A stretch of 36,980 bases of DNA from a virus, in the IMG/VR virus record IMGVR_UViG_3300035492_000302, positions 1 to 36,980 of that record. One strand, written 5' to 3'. Shown in pieces: positions 9,025 through 16,223 of this stretch. The notes under the pieces are model-generated. The model was not told where the DNA came from. It saw only the letters and a list, made by a program, of their open reading frames with translations, and made no database searches. A program made the translations under genes and the position numbers. The number at the start of each line of letters is the position of its first letter. Within the stretch, counting starts at the first letter, position 1.

Positions 9025-10200
9025 TTAGGCGTTGATGCGCTGGGAAAAATCAAGCAGGTAGCGATCCGTGATGCGCTGCTGGAACTGCAGGTTTTCCAAC
9101 GGCGGCACGGGCGTGTAGTCGTAATCGATCGTGAGCTTTCCCGATTTCAGGTTATCGACGTTGTTGTACTGCTCGTCGTACCAGGCCACACCGTCGATGA
9201 TGTAGCCGCGCACGCGCAAATCGGCGAATTTGCGGTTAATACCTTCGATAATGTCTTTGATCAGCGATGGGTGCATCGGCTGGTCTACCGCCCACATGTG
9301 AGCCTCGGCGATGGTGTCGGCCAGCACTTGGGCCGTGCGCGTGTAGTTCTCGAACGGGAAAAGGCTTTGCGGGCCGGCGCAGGTGCGCGATCCCCAGAAA
9401 CGAAAACCGGTGCTGTTGATCAAAGTCGTGACGTCGTTTTCGTTCAGGTAGCCCGCATCGGTGGCAGGATCCTGCAGATCCCAGAAAACATCTTTGCTGA
9501 TGCCTGTGACGCCATTGACAACGTAGTTCGACAGCGTTTTGTGCCAGCCGATTTCCTGGTCGATCTTGGCGCGCAAGCCCATGGCCACCGCCACGCTGGA
9601 CATGCCTTGTTCGGCGTTGGCCACAGTATCCCAACTGGTCCAATCTGGCCAGATAACCATAAGCTCGCGTTGGCCGAAAGTTTCGCGGTAAAGCGTGGCC
9701 TCTTCCTTGGTTGCGCACTCCCATGCCGAAACGTAGCCGAACGCGCGCAGCTGCTGTGCAATGGTGGCCAGGGCCACCGCAACGGGCTCTGAATCGAGAA
9801 ATGGCGCGCCCAGGATACGCGGTTTGACCTGAAGACGCGACTGGGCAGCCAGCAAGGCACGCATGCCGGTGTACTGGCCGGTGGGCGATGTGCCGCCGAT
9901 CACGTTGCTGGTGGTTTCTTCAGGCGTCAGGCCTTCAGCCACGCGAACCACAACCGTGACAGGTTTGGTCTGGCTGGCGATCGCTTCGAGCGATTTCCGT
10001 AGCGTCCCTTGCGTTCCAGCCGATCCGATGCCGGTCAGGATGTTGGTCAGAAGTACCGGCGTATCAAGCGGAAAAACGTCGGCATCAGCGTCTTCGGCCG
10101 TTGCAATCAATCCGACCACAGCCGTTGAAACGGTGCGGATGGGGCGCGTGCCCTGGTTGATTTCGAGGACTCGGACGCCGTGGTGATAATCGGTTGTCAT
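9025..10200 (-). CDS. FI: Contractile tail sheath protein FI
   Basis: 391 aa starting MTTDYHHGVRVLEINQGTRPI, a typical sheath N-terminus. It is followed by tube, E and T. Confidence 0.9.
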   Translation of the reverse strand: MTTDYHHGVRVLEINQGTRPIRTVSTAVVGLIATAEDADADVFPLDTPVLLTNILTGIGSAGTQGTLRKSLEAIASQTKPVTVVVRVAEGLTPEETTSNVIGGTSPTGQYTGMRALLAAQSRLQVKPRILGAPFLDSEPVAVALATIAQQLRAFGYVSAWECATKEEATLYRETFGQRELMVIWPDWTSWDTVANAEQGMSSVAVAMGLRAKIDQEIGWHKTLSNYVVNGVTGISKDVFWDLQDPATDAGYLNENDVTTLINSTGFRFWGSRTCAGPQSLFPFENYTRTAQVLADTIAEAHMWAVDQPMHPSLIKDIIEGINRKFADLRVRGYIIDGVAWYDEQYNNVDNLKSGKLTIDYDYTPVPPLENLQFQQRITDRYLLDFSQRINA

Positions 10201-10202
10201 AG

Positions 10203-11267
10203 TTACGCTCCAATGGTGGCGGTGGTAAGAGGAAAGGAACTGAGCAAGTGCGAGCGCAGCCCATAGGTCTGGGCGTGACTAGCGTGTGCAATCCAGCTTT
10301 GAATCACTGGCTGGATCTGCGAAAGCGTGATGCGACGATCGCGGTACAAGCGCTGGAATCGGCGCAACTTTGTTTTCATGCATTTAATGCTGTCAACACG
10401 CAGGCGCCGATGGGTTGGGTAGATTCGATAACCAAGAAAGTCCAATGCGCGCCCGTTGTTTATCCCGATAGGGAAAACCTGGGTTTTATGGTTGGTTCGC
10501 AAGCGCAGCTGCGACCACAGAAAGCTTTCGATGCGTCGGCGTATCTCGTGCAGATGGGTCTTGTCGTGGTGAACCACCACAAAATCATCCATGTACCGGC
10601 AGTAGTAACTCTGGCCAAGATCGTGCTTGACGTACATGTCAAGCTCATGCAGATAGATGTTGGCGCACAGCTGCGAGGTCAGGTTGCCAATGGGAAGGCC
10701 GACCGGCGCGAGTGAGCCTGGCAGCGTGCAAGCGCTGTCGATGATGTTGTCCATCAGGGCAAGGGTGCTTTGGCAGGCGATGTGCCGGCGCAGCAGCTTT
10801 TTAATAATGCCGTGGTCAATGGAAGCGAAGTACTTGCTGATGTCTGCCTTGAGAACGTACACCCTTCCGTGCGATCGATTGACGTTGCGCAAGAAAGTCT
10901 GAGCGCGATTGGCGCCACTGTGCATGCCGCGCCCAACACGGCAGGCGTAGCTGTCGTGGATGAACCGCGCCTCCCAGATCGGTTCGATGACCGAGAACAC
11001 GGCGTGTTGAACAATGCGGTCGCGAAACGGCAGGGCTGCGACCATGCGGGTTTTGGGCTCGTGCACGTAGAACGTGTGATATGAGCCCGTTTGATAGGTG
11101 CCCCAGATCAGCTCGTTTTGAAGTTGGATCAGCTCGCATTCAAGATCGCGCTCGAAGAGCTGAACCTGCGCGTTGTCGCGCTTGCCTTTTCTGGCTTTCA
11201 GGTACGAACGGTACAGATTCTCAAAATCATAGATCTGCTCAAAAAGGTTGGTGTAGGTAACTGCCAT
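10203..11267 (-). CDS. DGR reverse transcriptase
   Basis: I chose the internal start M108 of ORF 10203..11588 (ATG at 11267). Motifs: YMDDFVVV catalytic box and IGNLTSQLCANIYL, the DGR-type (I/L)GxxxSQ motif. TR and avd lie immediately upstream. Confidence 0.9.
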   Translation of the reverse strand: MAVTYTNLFEQIYDFENLYRSYLKARKGKRDNAQVQLFERDLECELIQLQNELIWGTYQTGSYHTFYVHEPKTRMVAALPFRDRIVQHAVFSVIEPIWEARFIHDSYACRVGRGMHSGANRAQTFLRNVNRSHGRVYVLKADISKYFASIDHGIIKKLLRRHIACQSTLALMDNIIDSACTLPGSLAPVGLPIGNLTSQLCANIYLHELDMYVKHDLGQSYYCRYMDDFVVVHHDKTHLHEIRRRIESFLWSQLRLRTNHKTQVFPIGINNGRALDFLGYRIYPTHRRLRVDSIKCMKTKLRRFQRLYRDRRITLSQIQPVIQSWIAHASHAQTYGLRSHLLSSFPLTTATIGA

Positions 11268-11419
11268 GGTCCTGCTTTGGTTGGCGGCCGCGCCGACTTT
11301 CGCAGGGCTACTGGCCTGCGCGGCCTGTTCAGTGTTTCGGCTTTTTGGGCCGGGGATGGCGCGTCCTTTTGAAGGTGCGCTGTCACGCGGCCCGTAAGCC
11401 ACGTGCTTCTGGCATCGCT

Positions 11420-11539
11420 CAAGAGCGGGGCGAAACCCGATGTTGTTGTTGGCGTTGGAGCGCGGATTGTTGAGGTTCAGCGCAGAGGGGCCTGCGTTGG
11501 CACCGTTGTTCCAATTGCCCCCACGAATCGGGAATCGCT
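11420..11539 (-). repeat. DGR template repeat (TR)
   Basis: 120 nt that align without gaps to 11982..12101. It starts 22 nt after the avd stop and is non-coding despite being in frame with the RT ORF. Confidence 0.9.
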
Positions 11540-11560
11540 GTAACGCACCACCCGTAAGCA

Positions 11561-11917
11561 TCATTCGGAGCGTGACCATTTGATCCATCCTCCGACCATG
11601 CGCCCGATTTCCGCCAAGTGGCGTGCCCAGATCTCGTACTTTTTGGTGTCCATGTACTGCAATGAATGCGCCAGGCGCACCATCGATCTGAGCAAATCAA
11701 GCTCGGCGTCAAGATCCTGCAGCGTCGTTTTTTTGTGGTACCGCTTATTGGTCACCACAATCAGGCGCAGTACGCGCAGCATGCTCAAACGTATTTCCGC
11801 AGCGAGCACATGGCGCTCGTGCTTTGGAAACTGGCGAAGCGCTACGTAGCCGTACTGAATCATTGCCTCACACTTTTGGCGAATCTGCAGGTCGTTTTGA
11901 TTGGCGTCGTTGGTCAT
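11561..11917 (-). CDS. avd: DGR accessory variability determinant (Avd)
   Basis: 118-aa basic helical protein. ...ARHLAEIGRMVGGWIKW resembles the Avd C-terminal helix (EVGRILGSWI in BPP-1, from memory). It lies between the target gene and TR. Confidence 0.8.
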   Translation of the reverse strand: MTNDANQNDLQIRQKCEAMIQYGYVALRQFPKHERHVLAAEIRLSMLRVLRLIVVTNKRYHKKTTLQDLDAELDLLRSMVRLAHSLQYMDTKKYEIWARHLAEIGRMVGGWIKWSRSE

Positions 11918-11931
11918 GATCGGTTTTATGA

Positions 11932-11951
11932 GGCTGCGCTACCGCGCAGCC
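11932..11951 (-). promoter_or_regulatory. GC-rich hairpin/cruciform downstream of VR (DGR target-recognition element)
   Basis: ggctgcgc tacc gcgcagcc forms a perfect 8-bp stem with a 4-nt loop, about 30 nt 3' of the VR end. Confidence 0.6.
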
Positions 11952-11973
11952 ATCAGATATCACGCTCCAAATT

Positions 11974-13083
11974 TCAGGCTACAAAAGCGGGGCGAAACCC
12001 GAAGGAGTTGTCGGCGTGGGAGCGCGGAAGGCTGAGGTTCAGCGCAGAGGGGCCCGCGTTGGCACCGTCGGTCCAATTGCCCCCACGAACCGGGAATCGC
12101 TCGCCGTGGTTACGGACATACAGCGTGCCCTCGTGCGTTCCGTCGATTGGATACAAATACAACGACTTGAGGATCCCTGGAGCCGTAACGCTGGCCTCGG
12201 ATGTAAGTGAGCTAAAGGGTGTATTGCCGTCCGTGCCGACCGTGTTTGCGTCGTCGCCCGGCGTACCTTTCTGGAACTCGATAACAGAGTTCAGGCGCGG
12301 CACGTTGCTGACTGCGCTGGTAGCGTCGTACTTGGCTGTGCCGACGCTGCCTGGGTCAACCAGGGCGCCGTCGCTTAGGCGAATCGCGCGCCATGCCGAA
12401 GAGCTCACGCCCATGTCGACGCTGGCCAGAACTGCATCGTTGTTGGCAATGACTTGAATCTCTCCATCAACTAGGCGCATACCAGGAGAGAACTCCCATA
12501 CGTTACCGACAAGATCAGCGATGCCGGTAGGCAGACCGTTGTGACGCCAGCTGGCCGGGCCACTGCCTGTAAAGATGCGCGGATTACCGGCACTTGACGG
12601 GGCAAGGCCACCATCGATGCGCCGGCCAGTTTCCCATGTGGCCGCATGCGAGCGTCCGAAGTTCGTGTTGCCGCGAACAGCAACGTTGTTTGTAGCTTTG
12701 TTCTTCCACATCCACAGCGCCAAAGCAGCGTAAGTCGCATTGGTGCACACGTGCCAGCCTGTGCCATTGGCGCGTGCATATGTTTGTGCTTGCGCCACGG
12801 TAAGCGATACGCTGACATCAACGCCGGGCAAGCTCAGTGCCTGGCCGTCACGCACCGTTGCTTGGTACATGCCAACGAAAATTTCAGGGATCTCCTGACC
12901 GTTGACAATAAAGGCCTCGTGAACACCCGTACCAAGGCTGGGATCGATGTCTTCCTTGCGAAATTTTGGAAGCACATAGACATAAACTGGGTGACTGTTG
13001 TTCTGTGTGTACAAAACGGTGTTCAGGCCACCGCTGGCCGCTTCTACAGCAGCGCGCAGGTTGTCTTTGGTGAAAATACTCAT
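11974..13083 (-). CDS. DGR target protein (Mtd-like receptor-binding tail fibre protein, FGE/C-type-lectin-like C-terminus)
   Basis: 369 aa with a GGAGAT SD. It contains GNVWEF (formylglycine-generating-enzyme-type fold motif). The C-terminus RFPVRGGNWTDGANAGPSALNLSLPRSHADNSFGFRPAFVA is VR-encoded. Confidence 0.85.
   Translation of the reverse strand: MSIFTKDNLRAAVEAASGGLNTVLYTQNNSHPVYVYVLPKFRKEDIDPSLGTGVHEAFIVNGQEIPEIFVGMYQATVRDGQALSLPGVDVSVSLTVAQAQTYARANGTGWHVCTNATYAALALWMWKNKATNNVAVRGNTNFGRSHAATWETGRRIDGGLAPSSAGNPRIFTGSGPASWRHNGLPTGIADLVGNVWEFSPGMRLVDGEIQVIANNDAVLASVDMGVSSSAWRAIRLSDGALVDPGSVGTAKYDATSAVSNVPRLNSVIEFQKGTPGDDANTVGTDGNTPFSSLTSEASVTAPGILKSLYLYPIDGTHEGTLYVRNHGERFPVRGGNWTDGANAGPSALNLSLPRSHADNSFGFRPAFVA
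11982..12101 (-). repeat. DGR variable repeat (VR) at the 3' end of the target gene
   Basis: It differs from TR at plus-strand positions 12003, 12005, 12006, 12012, 12018, 12029, 12030, 12032, 12055, 12069, 12071 and 12090. Every one of these is a T in plus-strand TR, which is an A in the sense strand. Confidence 0.9.
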
Positions 13084-13122
13084 TGCTTAATCTCCAGGGT
13101 GAGTGTCTTTTGGGTCGCGCCG

Positions 13123-13458
13123 TTAGCTGCGCGGCCAGACTGTGATTTCTACGGTGTCCGGATCAAGATCGAGCGGAACCAGTGTTTGCGTGCTATTGGG
13201 CTCGCCCTGCTCGTTGGTGCCGAGCTCGTCGACGGTTTCGGTGCGATAAGCCCGCGCCGGAATGCGTATGTTCAGAACGAACGCGCCTGGGCCATCCAGG
13301 CTGAGGCTGCCGTCAGTGTTCCGATACACGTCGACAATGCGCTCACTATCGTCCTGGTAGTCAGTCGCGTCGATGATGAGCTCGCCCACACTGATGACGG
13401 TGCCGTCGACTGAAAAGTCGCTATGCGGGCCGGGGCCCATGGTTTTGATCATGGCCAT
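13123..13458 (-). CDS. Hypothetical tail-fibre-module protein
   Basis: 111-aa ORF tightly packed between fibre genes. No family recognised. Confidence 0.5.
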   Translation of the reverse strand: MAMIKTMGPGPHSDFSVDGTVISVGELIIDATDYQDDSERIVDVYRNTDGSLSLDGPGAFVLNIRIPARAYRTETVDELGTNEQGEPNSTQTLVPLDLDPDTVEITVWPRS

Positions 13459-13463
13459 GATGT

Positions 13464-14390
13464 TCAGATCTCCATAAGGTTGATAGACCAGCGCAGAACC
13501 ACCGCATCGGCAGCGCTGGCAAGGGTTACACGAAAGCCGTTGCTCGCCCGGGCGCTGATAGACAACGCATCCGATGGCAATGGCGCGCCCGTGGCAGAGA
13601 GCGCATCGAGCGTGAGCCTGTAGCCATCGTTCGGTAAGGAATAGGGAAGCGCCACGAGAATGCTGGCCGGGCTGTTTAGTACGGCAGGGAAGCTTGCTTC
13701 GACGCGGCGAACATCTGTCATGGAAACCGAGTCGAGGGATGGATCGACGCTTGATGTGTTGCCAGCGGGTACGGTGATCCGATACAGCGCCAGCGCATCA
13801 GCGGGTGCGTCGACCCCGAGCATGGTCACGCCAAACTCAATGCCCTCGACTGCAGCGGCGTTTTCGCGCAGGTACACGGTGCATGTCTGGTTGGTTGCGC
13901 CCGGGTTGGGCGGCACCGATGCAGCATTCAGACGTTCGCGCACTGAAAAGCGCCGCCCCTTGAGAAACAGAACGCCGGCAGCCAGATTCAGGTTCCGCGC
14001 TGCATTAGTTGATTTTGTGACCGACAAGCCAGAGACTACGCCGCGATTGGCCAACTCAATCTGCCCTGACTGGTGGCGGTAACGAAGCGTTTTGCGCAAC
14101 TCAGTATCGGCCAGCGCGCTGCGCTCCAAAAGGTCGCGGACAAAGTAGTGCAAGGCGTTCTGATAGTCATGATCCTGAGAGCCGATGCGCTGATCCATCC
14201 CGGCAAGCCGGTTAGGTAATGAGCCGCTGTCGCCAGCCGCTGACTCAAGCTCTTGCTCTACCGCAGTTTGTCGATTATCAAGATCTGCAAAATTCTGGTC
14301 TATTTCTTCGTAGCGCGTGTTCCACAACGATGGAACAGCATCAGGCTCGTTGTTTGGGATGGGGGTGATATTTTGATTCGGCAAGGTCAT
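13464..14390 (-). CDS. Putative tail fibre protein
   Basis: 308 aa. The call rests on its position after the collar-domain gene and on the N-terminal PSLWNTRYEEIDQNFADLDNR, which is fibre-like. Confidence 0.5.
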   Translation of the reverse strand: MTLPNQNITPIPNNEPDAVPSLWNTRYEEIDQNFADLDNRQTAVEQELESAAGDSGSLPNRLAGMDQRIGSQDHDYQNALHYFVRDLLERSALADTELRKTLRYRHQSGQIELANRGVVSGLSVTKSTNAARNLNLAAGVLFLKGRRFSVRERLNAASVPPNPGATNQTCTVYLRENAAAVEGIEFGVTMLGVDAPADALALYRITVPAGNTSSVDPSLDSVSMTDVRRVEASFPAVLNSPASILVALPYSLPNDGYRLTLDALSATGAPLPSDALSISARASNGFRVTLASAADAVVLRWSINLMEI

Positions 14391-14404: not shown

Positions 14405-14782
14405 TTAATAGCGCAGGGTGATGCTGATTTCGTAGCGCTCGTCGCTTTCCTTGAGCTTGGGTGCGAAGGTTTTGAAGCCGACAACTTTTCCGTCCTCGTC
14501 CAGCAGCGCGGCCTCGGAGACGCGCGCGCCCACAAGCTCGGCCTCCTCCAGCGCTCCCCTGCCGGTGGTTTCAAGCGCGTCGCGGGTGACAGTTGTCAGT
14601 GGTTTACGCAGCAGCTCGTTCCAGAGCGTGGTGCGGTTCGGATCCGGCGATTTCGGTGTGAGATCGGGGTTGTGCCCGCCATCGCCAAATGCCATGTAGA
14701 AAATGCGCTTGACTGGCGTGCCGTCATGAGCCTGGCGTGCCAGGCGAAGACGGTAGTCGTAAGCGGTGACCGCTTCAGCCAT
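14405..14782 (-). CDS. Tail-collar fibre N-terminal-domain protein (P2 gpH N-domain-like)
   Basis: IFYMAFGDGGHNPDL...LWNELLRK resembles the P2 H N-terminus (MAVGDGGG...L..EVWR). It lies directly after gene I. Confidence 0.6.
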   Translation of the reverse strand: MAEAVTAYDYRLRLARQAHDGTPVKRIFYMAFGDGGHNPDLTPKSPDPNRTTLWNELLRKPLTTVTRDALETTGRGALEEAELVGARVSEAALLDEDGKVVGFKTFAPKLKESDERYEISITLRY

Positions 14783-16223
14783 AGGATGCTCCCTTGATAA
14801 TCGTGATTAATGAGTGTGGACGCGCCCTTGCCCCCAGGCCCCAGTGGCCGTCCAGGCGCAGGCGACGGGGGGTATCGGTCAGTGGTTCGTAGGTCGCCCC
14901 GTTCATGTCGTAGGCAAGATCGAAGTGGCCCAGCCTGGGCGCAACCTGAAACCTGACCTGGCCAAGGTGCCACGAACCATCCAGGCGACGATGCCGGTAG
15001 CCAAGCTTGGCGGCACGCAGCCTGCCAAGGCGCTCCGGGCTGACGCTGATGTTCTGGCTGGCATCTATCGTGGCTGCGCTGTACGCAGGCAATGGCGTGT
15101 CGCGCCCGATACGAAACCCAAAAGGCTGGCGTCGGCGAGGGGCGCCCACGCGCCAGCTGGCGTCAAGGCGAACCCATGGCGCCAGGCGATTGGGGCGCGA
15201 CGGCAGGCGCGTTGCATTGAGCGGGTAGCTCAAGCTGGTGCTGTCGTGGTAGGTCACAGCCACCCCGATTGGCTGCTCAATGCGTGTTTGCGAGCGCATC
15301 AAGTTATGACTGTCAGCGTCGATCAGGCGAGACCCAAGACGCCAAGATCCGTCCAGACGCCGATCTTTTTGGCCCAAGCGCATGCATGGGCCAACTATCG
15401 TTGGCGCACCATGAATCTGGGCCAGCAGGTGGCTTTGAATCGTGCACTGGCGCAGTGCCAGACCGGGCTTGGCGCCGACTGTCTGACCTAGCCTGAAAGA
15501 TCCGAATGGGCGTGGCAAGGTCACAGTGCTGCCGTCTTTTCCAAGCTGGAACTTGGCATCGTCGTAGTCGCTCAGCACCAGATTGCACCAGGGGTACCTG
15601 CCGGTCGTCTGCTTTTGCAGCAAGGCCCTGGACTGCACCACGATGAGCACCCTGATCAGTAGCGAGAGCACGTACGAATAGATCGGCACCGAACGCTGCG
15701 GTTTCCATGCGTCGATCAGCCGGCGTGCCTGCTCAATGGCTTTGGGGTGCTCCGCCTGAGCAAGATCAAGCTGCACGATGAACTGCGCCCAGTGCTGGAT
15801 TTGAGGCACGCCAGCAACAGCGTCGATCGGGCCGATCTTTTTTGATCCGTCCAGAGACCAGGTGCCGTCTAGGTTCAGTGCGCCAAGCGCATCGTAGATG
15901 GCTCGTTGCTCTTTTTGTTCAATGATGCGCGCGGTCAGCCCCGATCGCTGCACTGCACGCTTTACAGCCCACACCGTGCCGCGCCGGCGATGCAAGGCGA
16001 TTTGACTTGCTACAGCTTCGCGCTTGACCTGCTCGGACCAGTTTTCTTCCCATTCATCGGCGGCAACCGTCCAAGCCAGCCAGGGCAGAAGCTCAATCGG
16101 GCAATCCCATGGGCTCCAAAGAGACCGAATGGGTACCGGTATATCACTGATCTGGCCAAGAACTGACGCGATCGCCCTTTCAACCGGGCTTGCGCTGGGC
16201 GGCAGGAGGTCACGCCTGTCCAT
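14775..16223 (-). CDS. I: Baseplate/tail protein I with a ~300-aa C-terminal extension
   Basis: The N-terminal ~185 aa (LPPSASPVERAIASV...LLPWLAW) are gpI-like. The C-terminal part carries RLDGSWxLG repeats. Confidence 0.75.
   Translation of the reverse strand: MDRRDLLPPSASPVERAIASVLGQISDIPVPIRSLWSPWDCPIELLPWLAWTVAADEWEENWSEQVKREAVASQIALHRRRGTVWAVKRAVQRSGLTARIIEQKEQRAIYDALGALNLDGTWSLDGSKKIGPIDAVAGVPQIQHWAQFIVQLDLAQAEHPKAIEQARRLIDAWKPQRSVPIYSYVLSLLIRVLIVVQSRALLQKQTTGRYPWCNLVLSDYDDAKFQLGKDGSTVTLPRPFGSFRLGQTVGAKPGLALRQCTIQSHLLAQIHGAPTIVGPCMRLGQKDRRLDGSWRLGSRLIDADSHNLMRSQTRIEQPIGVAVTYHDSTSLSYPLNATRLPSRPNRLAPWVRLDASWRVGAPRRRQPFGFRIGRDTPLPAYSAATIDASQNISVSPERLGRLRAAKLGYRHRRLDGSWHLGQVRFQVAPRLGHFDLAYDMNGATYEPLTDTPRRLRLDGHWGLGARARPHSLITIIKGASYG

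Follow-up and report, generated by a model that had tools for sequence, protein, structure and literature searches.

The window analysed here, a virus sequence of 36,980 nucleotides (positions 1 to 36,980 of IMG/VR record IMGVR_UViG_3300035492_000302), is a JGI metagenome contig that carries a P2-like temperate phage. Its region 10203-13083, located between the tail-fibre genes and the tail sheath gene, very probably represents a complete diversity-generating retroelement (DGR) of the BPP-1 type, embedded in the late tail operon of this phage. On the minus strand, the region consists of a 369-aa target gene (11974-13083) with the variable region (VR) at its 3' end, a hairpin (11932-11951), the avd gene (11561-11917; 118 aa), the template region (TR; 11420-11539), a 152-nt spacer (Sp; 11268-11419), and a gene for a 354-aa reverse transcriptase (RT; 10203-11267). 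The target stop codon is separated from the avd ATG by 56 nt, the avd stop codon from the TR by 21 nt, and the TR from the RT ATG by the 152 nt of the spacer. The BPP-1 prototype has the same order, mtd/VR, avd, TR, a 144-nt spacer, and brt. The original prediction, which described a complete minus-strand DGR with a spacer of about 150 nt in the BPP-1-type arrangement, is borne out at each of these positions.

The P2-like (Peduoviridae-type) nature of the phage is evident from three features. The capsid belongs to the P2 family, with 62% identity to P2-family capsids of Burkholderia and Ralstonia phages; the portal and terminase pair is found beside the capsid genes on the opposite strand; and the tail region contains the baseplate genes V, W, J, and I, with the sheath, tube, tape measure, gpU, and gpD genes arranged as in P2 (V W J I ... 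FI FII E T U D). An integrase and a primase are encoded in the same phage. Searches revealed no DNA-level similarity to any phage record, and the closest genomic relative of the RT is found in a Craterilacuibacter prophage (L006; 70% identity).

Repeat pair, reverse transcriptase, and Avd

A repeat finder detects one 120-nt direct repeat (89% identity), which comprises the avd-proximal TR at 11420-11539 and the VR at 11982-12101. The VR encodes target residues ~329-368 and ends 5 nt before the target stop codon. No other TR-like copy of at least 50 nt, such as might mark a second target, is present anywhere in the window. On the coding strand, the TR and VR differ at 13 positions, 12 of which have an A in the TR that is replaced in the VR by G (5), C (4), or T (3). 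The probability of finding at least 12 of the 13 mismatches on A is 1.9e-8 (hypergeometric, with 27 adenines in 120 nt). The fraction of TR adenines substituted in the VR, 12 of 27 (44%), is close to the per-adenine misincorporation of 52% measured for the BPP-1 bRT-Avd complex (PMC7826257). Nearly all TR adenines (25 of 27) occupy codon positions 1 and 2, and 11 of the 12 A-site changes alter the encoded amino acid. The TR contains 11 AAY codons, in which mutation at an A never yields a stop codon; together with 2 ATY codons, these make up 13 variable codons with a theoretical repertoire of ~1e14 protein variants.

The only mismatch at a position other than a TR adenine, a C in the TR and a T in the VR, is found 4 nt from the 3' end. 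It falls within a segment at the VR 3' end that resembles an initiation of mutagenic homing (IMH) site (GGGTTTCGCCCCGCTTTTG; 11982-12000), whose TR counterpart, IMH* (11420-11438), ends in ...GCTCTTG. At its 3' end, the TR has the sequence ...CGCCCCGCTCTTG and the VR has ...CGCCCCGCTTTTG, giving the combined pattern GGGTTTCGCCCCGCT(T/C)TTG. The same C/T difference is found at the same place in four diverged relatives, namely, the related elements L030, L006, and L007/L008 and Vibrio phage VHML, and behaves like the IMH*/IMH distinction that spares the TR from being overwritten. The GC-only run at the IMH is 8 nt long, shorter than the 14 nt in BPP-1. A near-identical repeat pair differing at TR adenines, a VR at the target 3' end with AAY codons, and a putative IMH/IMH* pair, all present here, are hallmarks of a DGR.

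The TR also lies within a 461-aa open reading frame (ORF; 10203-11588) that starts inside the end of avd, spans the TR, which is read in the VR frame, and the entire spacer, and continues into the RT gene. This read-through ORF is the source of the annotation of the RT as a 458-aa protein by gene callers (L003). The Pseudoalteromonas phages ACA1 and ACA2 share a TR that is open in frame with the RT (PMC10612066). A TR-RT fusion protein was considered; such a fusion is absent in L006, VHML, and BPP-1, and the open frame is therefore probably incidental.

The RT start was placed at the ATG that aligns with residue 1 of the BPP-1 enzyme bRT and of the nearest relative. The protein contains the Pfam RVT_1 domain and matches phrog_1423 (473 bits); its best match among solved structures is bRT itself (PDB 8UB7; residues 4-339, E = 1.3e-60, 209 bits). 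The predicted YMDD and IGNLTSQ motifs are found at aa 225-228 (10584-10595) and aa 193-199 (10671-10691), respectively. The latter fits the DGR signature [I/V/L]GxxxSQ and, in combination with YxDD, assigns the enzyme to the DGR clade. The equivalents of bRT R74 (within 11046-11060) and I181, residues shown to promote adenine mutagenesis (PMC7826257), are conserved.

Two other origins of this RT have to be considered. It could come from a complete or fragmentary group II intron that had inserted between the tail genes; indeed, the group II RT/maturase model TIGR04416 is its top NCBIfam match. However, the score of 144.6 bits is under half of the 300-bit cut-off, the best match to a group II intron RT has an E value of 4.2e-19 as against 1.3e-60 for bRT, and the motif is IGxxxSQ rather than QGxxxSP. 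Rfam searches at E <= 1 detect no intron RNA family across positions 10000-13300, and the probability of an intron origin is negligible. Alternatively, the enzyme could be a defence-type RT, i.e., a retron, abortive infection (Abi), or defence-associated RT (DRT) protein, with the repeat being incidental. There is precedent for such a gene, since a functional RT that inhibits T5 infection, Orf570 of prophage P2-EC30, comes from a locus that is highly variable among P2-like coliphages (Odegrip 2006). In P2, the Z/fun locus is cited as an accessory and antiviral defence locus, and sub-threshold PADLOC and NCBIfam matches to DRTs and retrons were obtained. These matches are nevertheless far below the model cut-offs (Drt3a, 82.8 of 200 bits; retron St85, 58.5 of 235 bits; likewise for Abi), and the protein is much closer to bRT. 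PADLOC assigns only generic RT matches to it and none to the neighbouring genes, no retron RNA is found in Rfam, and the gene is flanked by a bona fide Avd and an A-biased TR/VR pair (P ~ 2e-8). A defence role is effectively refuted, and the earlier expectation that profile models would place the RT in neither the group II intron nor the retron clade is upheld.

The product of avd scores 127.9 bits with the NCBIfam equivalog NF033474 (DivGenRetAVD; cut-off, 80 bits), contains the Pfam bAvd domain (1.1e-32), and matches phrog_3206, annotated as 'Avd protein of DGR', as well as Bbp7 (PDB 4DWL). As in other DGRs of this kind, its gene adjoins the TR.

Hairpin and spacer RNA

The putative target-site hairpin, or cruciform, at 11932-11951 has the sequence GGCTGCGC-GGTA-GCGCAGCC, with a GC-rich stem of 8 bp and a loop of 4 nt, and lies 30 nt 3' of the VR. 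In BPP-1, such a hairpin is required for retrohoming (Guo et al., PMC3240598), and the hairpins of phage DGRs have a GC stem of 7-10 bp, a GRNA loop, and a distance of 4-34 bp from the VR (PMC3240598); the one in the window satisfies this rule on all three counts. It is retained, through compensatory changes in the stem, in L030, L006, L007, Pseudomonas phage Bise, VHML, and L009, whose stems read GACTGCGC/GCGCAGTC, GGGTGCGC/GCGCACCC, CGTGCGC/GCGCACG, GGGTGC/GCACCC, GGCGCAC/GTGCGCC, and GGCGTGTC/GACACGCC; the complete VHML hairpin is GGCGCAC-GGTA-GTGCGCC.

A short motif, (A/T)TCTGA, is located 2-4 nt upstream of the hairpin (11952-11981), often with a second copy nearer the target stop codon. 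The motif is also conserved in diverged elements (L030, L006, L007, L009, and L034), in a position 3' of the target gene. In the last of these, a DGR-less Janthinobacterium prophage described below, the gene for a TaqVP-like protein is followed by a similar remnant that consists of ATCTG and a hairpin.

The spacer (11268-11419) has a full-length match (11285-11425) in the Rfam family RT-14 (RF02921), with a score of 48.1 bits that equals the gathering score; the corresponding score of the nearest relative, L006, is 51.7 bits. The BPP-1 spacer matches a sister family, Phage_DGR (RF03022), with 104.7 bits. Common to the consensus structures of both families are a stem-loop with a UACG cap, which immediately follows the TR, and a 3' hairpin with AGUAGC...GCGAA.

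Three helices are predicted in and around the spacer of the window. The first is a long-range duplex in which 12 nt located just upstream of the TR (11542-11553) pair with spacer nt 55-66 (GACGCGCCAUCC; 11354-11365). The second, spacer stem-loop 1 (11385-11404), has an 8-bp stem and a UACG tetraloop, starts 15 nt after the TR, and is a candidate Avd-binding stem-loop. The third is a small stem-loop of 4 bp that is followed by AAACAC (11338-11352). In an alignment of four sequences, the window and its relatives L030, L006, and L007, which covers the 24 pairs of these helices, standard pairs occupy 94.8% of the cells, compared to 71.6% in shuffled controls. Compensatory changes are seen in 17 of the 24 pairs (7 of 12 in the duplex, 7 of 8 in the UACG stem-loop, and 3 of 4 in the small stem-loop). 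None of 500 shuffles reaches the observed value, and sliding the partners by 1-3 columns gives 32-51%. Judged by these four sequences, the DGR has a structured spacer RNA.

In BPP-1, a duplex termed 'cPRT Stop' pairs sequences upstream and downstream of the TR; the stop element includes a stem-loop with adenosines after it, and these elements are widely conserved (bioRxiv 10.1101/2023.10.23.563531). The duplex in the window appears to be of the same kind, and its small stem-loop with AAACAC would match the part of the stop element formed by the stem-loop and adenosines. Predicted duplexes of the TR 3' end with the spacer are not specific. By analogy with Sp A56 of BPP-1, which immediately precedes the duplex strand on its 5' side, a candidate priming site is the invariant AAAAGG (spacer nt 50-55), which could pair with the invariant CUCUU of the TR. 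Such pairing, if true, would begin the cDNA just 5' of the TR-specific C.

Target protein, tail fibre, and activity

The target protein belongs to the TaqVP family, within the TaqVP/Mtd/TvpA class of DGR variable proteins, and matches phrog_2889 (404 bits). TaqVP, the DGR variable protein of Thermus aquaticus, has a crystal structure (PDB 5VF4) with a C-type lectin fold of the formylglycine-generating enzyme (FGE) type. The target aligns with it over its full length (residues 4-368 versus 8-384, E = 1.6e-98). The VR of TaqVP covers amino acids 341-374 (paper numbering) at the C-terminal end, and the VR-encoded stretch of the target (~aa 329-368) aligns with ~345-384 of the deposited 5VF4 chain, the same C-terminal part. 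The motif GNVWEF is found at aa 193-198 (12490-12507). The original prediction of an FGE/C-type-lectin-like target ending in the VR agrees with this homology, from which a C-type lectin fold with a C-terminal VR can be predicted for the window protein. A Pfam search of the target gives no direct match, either to FGE-sulfatase or to any other family; PF03781 is recorded for many of its homologues. Full-length homologues are found in 47 phage records, including phages of Klebsiella, Vibrio, Pseudoalteromonas, Aeromonas, Pseudomonas, Bacillus, Clostridium, and Faecalibacterium, and sit in the tail modules of many of these phages.

In the window, the target is the last gene of a series that starts with the gpI-like baseplate gene and continues with p125 (14405-14782), p308 (13464-14390), and p111 (13123-13458). 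The series of p125, p308, p111, and target recurs in L030, in phage Bise, in a Burkholderia element (L032), and in L034. p125 shows a weak match to the N-terminal domain of tail-collar fibre proteins and no similarity to ORF34 of VHML. The structure model of p308 (predicted local distance difference test score [pLDDT], 84) consists of three long N-terminal helices followed by a β-strand region; it has no significant structural match in PDB, and neither p308 nor p125 has sequence relatives there. The products of p125, p308, and p111 are presumed to be the fibre base, shaft, and adaptor. Because P2 H/G-type fibre genes are absent in this lineage and p125 weakly resembles a baseplate-binding fibre N-terminal domain, the fibre is most likely made up of the products of the four genes, and the lectin-fold protein is predicted to be at its tip. 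From the gene order, the target is probably the receptor-binding protein of the virion.

A P2-like prophage of Janthinobacterium lividum (L034; GCA_001854915.1, 6609-9443) has the same organization in a form lacking the retroelement. Its V, W, J, and I genes (the latter encoding 488 aa) are followed by genes for proteins of 126, 304, and 100 aa and, at the end of the series, a 372-aa TaqVP-like protein (43% identity to the target) whose gene runs directly into the sheath gene. No avd, RT, or TR copy is found within 7 kb. This DGR-less prophage with the same gene series indicates that only the avd-TR-spacer-RT segment is an add-on and that the target is a resident fibre-tip gene. The original prediction had placed the whole cassette in the variable Z/fun slot of P2 relatives. 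The position between the fibre genes and FI is confirmed, but the target does not appear to be part of the insertion.

By comparison with BPP-1, the following mechanism can be proposed. The avd-TR-spacer region would be transcribed, and the RT and pentameric Avd would assemble on the spacer RNA, with the UACG stem-loop, the TR-clamping duplex, and the stem-loop with its adenosines as candidate contacts. The presence of these RNA elements follows from the sequence and covariation, and their role is presumed from BPP-1. Again as in BPP-1, the RNA might serve as primer for its own reverse transcription, which would start at a spacer nucleotide that pairs close to the GC-rich TR 3' end. The RT would then copy the TR faithfully except opposite adenines, a step to which the A-only TR/VR differences and the conserved R74 and I181 point indirectly. 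The mutagenised cDNA would replace the VR, presumably guided by the IMH-like end and the downstream hairpin with its GRNA loop, while the TR would be protected by the C-for-T difference of IMH*. The outcome would be up to ~1e14 variants at the 13 codons, which fall in the ligand-binding surface at the C terminus of a protein with a C-type lectin fold. Since this variable protein most likely forms the receptor-binding tip of the fibre, progeny phages would be able to sample new host receptors.

Several points weigh against an active DGR that diversifies a virion protein. The placement of the target in the virion comes from gene order only, and p308 and p125 have no recognisable structural homologues that would support it. 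TaqVP is monomeric and lacks a signal sequence, and its crystallographers speculated that it acts inside the cell. The 90% identity cluster of the target contains a single sequence among ~15 billion proteins, the two other assemblies that include the VR (SRR11791769 and SRR11791770) carry an identical VR, and a search of IMG/VR and JGI metagenome contigs with the TR/VR pattern having N at every adenine gave no match. As for the RNA, the RT-14 match sits exactly at the threshold, and the covariation test involved four sequences from which the structure was itself partly derived.

The TaqVP data raise the alternative of a working DGR whose variable protein acts in the cell or on the lysogen. This alternative could also draw on the ACA study, which reported higher spectrum counts than expected for the homologous protein and commented that there might be more behind this (PMC10612066). 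However, the gene is located in the late tail operon, after the gpI-like baseplate gene and a protein with a fibre-type N-terminal domain, the lineage has no P2 H/G-type fibre genes to serve as a substitute, and homologues are encoded in the tail modules of many phages. Furthermore, ACA1 and ACA2 differ almost only in the homologous protein and infect different hosts (PMC10612066), and a virion protein requires no signal peptide. A non-virion role of the target is accordingly considered very unlikely.

The uniform VR could instead mean that the DGR was recently inactivated or is dormant, with its parts still recognisable, the VR frozen, and retrohoming stopped. Only one VR sequence is seen in every public assembly with the element, and decay does occur in the group, as exemplified by the frameshifted avd in the sister element L008 and a frameshifted RT in one copy of an ACA prophage (PMC10612066). 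On the other hand, all three ORFs are intact and of full length, with conserved catalytic and fidelity-relevant residues, and the TR, IMH, hairpin, and spacer helices are intact as well; that all parts are intact argues against decay. Moreover, exact-protein look-ups with Avd, p111, and the sheath protein found no public data with the element beyond two SRA runs and a single JGI contig of 1 kb, a sampling that is far too small for variant detection. The TR is identical in the three other assemblies carrying the element. Dormancy thus seems unlikely, albeit less so than an intracellular target, and the preferred interpretation is that this copy of the DGR is likely active at present.

In relatives of the element, the mechanism clearly operates. 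Among 13 sampled members of the 90%-identity cluster that includes the target of phage Bise (151 members), the proteins are near-identical over ~330 residues and hypervariable only at the positions of the VR asparagine codons. Two Endozoicomonas elements that are 94.5% identical overall have identical TRs and 16 differences in the VR, 15 of them at TR-adenine sites. Members of the Bise target cluster (P0062/P0121), at least 90% identical outside the VR, come from genomes of Pseudomonas aeruginosa, Citrobacter freundii, Citrobacter farmeri, and Aeromonas hydrophila, and one phage type therefore appears to occur in several genera and to differ mainly in the VR.

Two observations concern individual assemblies. 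In SRR11791770 (L004 and L027), one of the two runs with this phage, the break in the assembly falls within the RT gene and not at the TR/VR repeat. In L008, which comes from an Endozoicomonas metagenome-assembled genome, a single-base insertion relative to L007 at ~1599 frameshifts avd and thereby joins avd, TR, and RT in a single ORF, which reflects either an error of assembly or a DGR that has been inactivated.

Known systems and the fibre-sheath junction

In the prototype DGR of BPP-1 (mtd-avd-TR-Sp-brt), the components have the same order and orientation as in the window. The RTs are 38% identical and share R74, I181, IGxxxSQ, and YMDD, and the Avd proteins are homologous. The similarity extends to the GRNA-loop hairpin, the UACG-capped stem-loop, the TR-flanking duplex, and the 3' hairpin with AGUAGC...GCGAA. 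In contrast to the P2-like myovirus described here, BPP-1 is a podovirus-like Rauchvirus. Its target protein Mtd was not detected as a sequence homologue of the window target, for which the structure search found only TaqVP, and the spacers belong to different Rfam families (Phage_DGR in BPP-1 and RT-14 in the window). The BPP-1 TR is 134 nt long, compared to 120 nt here, and its hairpin lies a few nucleotides from the VR, compared to 30 nt here.

Vibrio phage VHML (genus Vhmlvirus) carries its cassette at the same position of a P2-type tail module, in which V, W, J, and I are followed by a gene for a short fibre protein, the TaqVP-family target (ORF35), avd/TR, RT, FI, and FII. Its target, RT, and Avd are 37%, 47%, and 41% identical to those of the window, respectively, and it has the same C/T difference between IMH* and IMH. 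However, the rest of its genome is not P2-like, an extra ORF is found between RT and FI, no counterparts of p308 and p111 were detected, and its spacer does not match Rfam RT-14 at E <= 0.01.

Like the window phage, the Pseudoalteromonas phages ACA1 and ACA2 are P2-like and temperate, and they encode a receptor-binding protein that is split from the N-terminal domain of gpH and diversified by the adjoining avd-TR-RT (PMC10612066); this protein is 35% identical to the target. They differ in having a gammaproteobacterial host and a genome of 43% GC (PMC10612066). According to their authors, writing in 2023, DGRs were absent from all other characterised P2-like phages (PMC10612066). The Craterilacuibacter prophage (L006) has the same order as the window, with identities of 70% for the RT, 77% for Avd, and 65% for the sheath protein. 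The window phage and this prophage show that a DGR in a P2-like phage is a recurrent combination that is not unique to the ACA phages.

TaqVP resembles the target along the full length, including the GNVWE motif and the C-terminal VR, and the T. aquaticus DGR has the same genetic structure. Nevertheless, T. aquaticus is a thermophile of another phylum, and the intracellular action suggested for its protein contrasts with the phage tail operon in which the window homologue is encoded. Pseudomonas phage Bise has the closest target among isolated phages (51% identity), encoded in a series of I, a small gene, genes for ~309-aa and ~106-aa proteins, target, avd, TR, and RT. In Bise, however, this cassette is found at the genome end, followed by a methylase gene instead of the sheath gene, and its RT is only 37% identical. 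Two tandem avd-RT pairs are found in L032, from Burkholderia multivorans (GCA_002981295.1, 8306-14800), where they follow the counterparts of p125, p308, and p111 (p126, p305, and p108), together with a TaqVP-family target (48% identity), and are accompanied by an integrase. A VgrG-like spike and large unannotated proteins are encoded upstream in place of the P2 baseplate, and L032 may be a duplicated DGR in another kind of element.

The DGR of the window is thus real and canonical, an ordinary member of a well-known kind whose arrangement is already on record in VHML and ACA1/ACA2, and it leaves the general understanding of DGRs unchanged. What it adds is a fully parsed DGR in a true P2-like phage, a combination that a 2023 paper regarded as unique to two Pseudoalteromonas phages (PMC10612066). 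It also provides, with its DGR-less sister prophage, a natural with/without pair for asking how a DGR benefits the phage. In addition, the crystallised TaqVP gains a phage-tail context, and the Rfam RT-14 motif is linked to RNA elements shown by cryo-electron microscopy to control DGR reverse transcription. A more inclusive interpretation would combine several of the proposals made above. The TaqVP-type protein and its three partners would be a resident fibre-tip module of a P2 sub-lineage that exists with and without a DGR, avd-TR-spacer-RT would be detachable at the fibre/sheath junction, and TaqVP would really be a phage receptor-binding protein. The RT-14 RNA would be the functional counterpart of the BPP-1 spacer with all three elements defined by cryo-electron microscopy, and priming would proceed from AAAAGG (spacer nt 50-55) on the TR CUCUU, just 3' of the end of TR/VR identity. 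Taken as a whole, this combination is tentative and has slightly less than an even chance of being correct.

The downstream boundary of the cassette is the FI-like tail sheath gene (9025-10200), which encodes Phage_sheath_1 and related Pfam domains, and the P2 gpI-like baseplate gene (14775-16223) lies upstream of the fibre series; between the two, the minus strand carries p125, p308, p111, the 369-aa target, avd, and RT, in this order. In P2, the corresponding order begins with H, G, and a terminator and continues with fun(Z), which is encoded on the opposite strand, the pF promoter, and FI. The cassette therefore occupies the same gene-order slot, between the fibre genes and FI, as fun(Z). 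Whereas fun(Z) and the P2-EC30 Orf570 RT are lysogenic-conversion or defence genes, the occupant of the slot in the window is co-directional with FI, ends 2 nt before it, and is a mutagenic retroelement that serves the adjoining fibre gene.

These 2 nt separate the RT stop codon (TAA) from the sheath ATG (10198-10205) and leave no intergenic room for a P2-type pF promoter or activator site, so that transcription of the sheath operon would have to pass through the DGR or start at a promoter within the RT gene. A promoter/terminator consensus scan found sites no more commonly than in shuffled sequence and none within the cassette on the coding strand. The gap before the sheath gene is ~760 nt in L006 and ~72 nt in the DGR-less L034.

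At the other end of the fibre series, the gpI-like protein is 482 aa long, compared to 176 aa in P2, and the extra ~300 residues at its C terminus hold ~5 copies of an LDGxWxLG motif. In the Janthinobacterium prophage, the 488-aa protein in the gpI-like position contains the Tail_P2_I domain.

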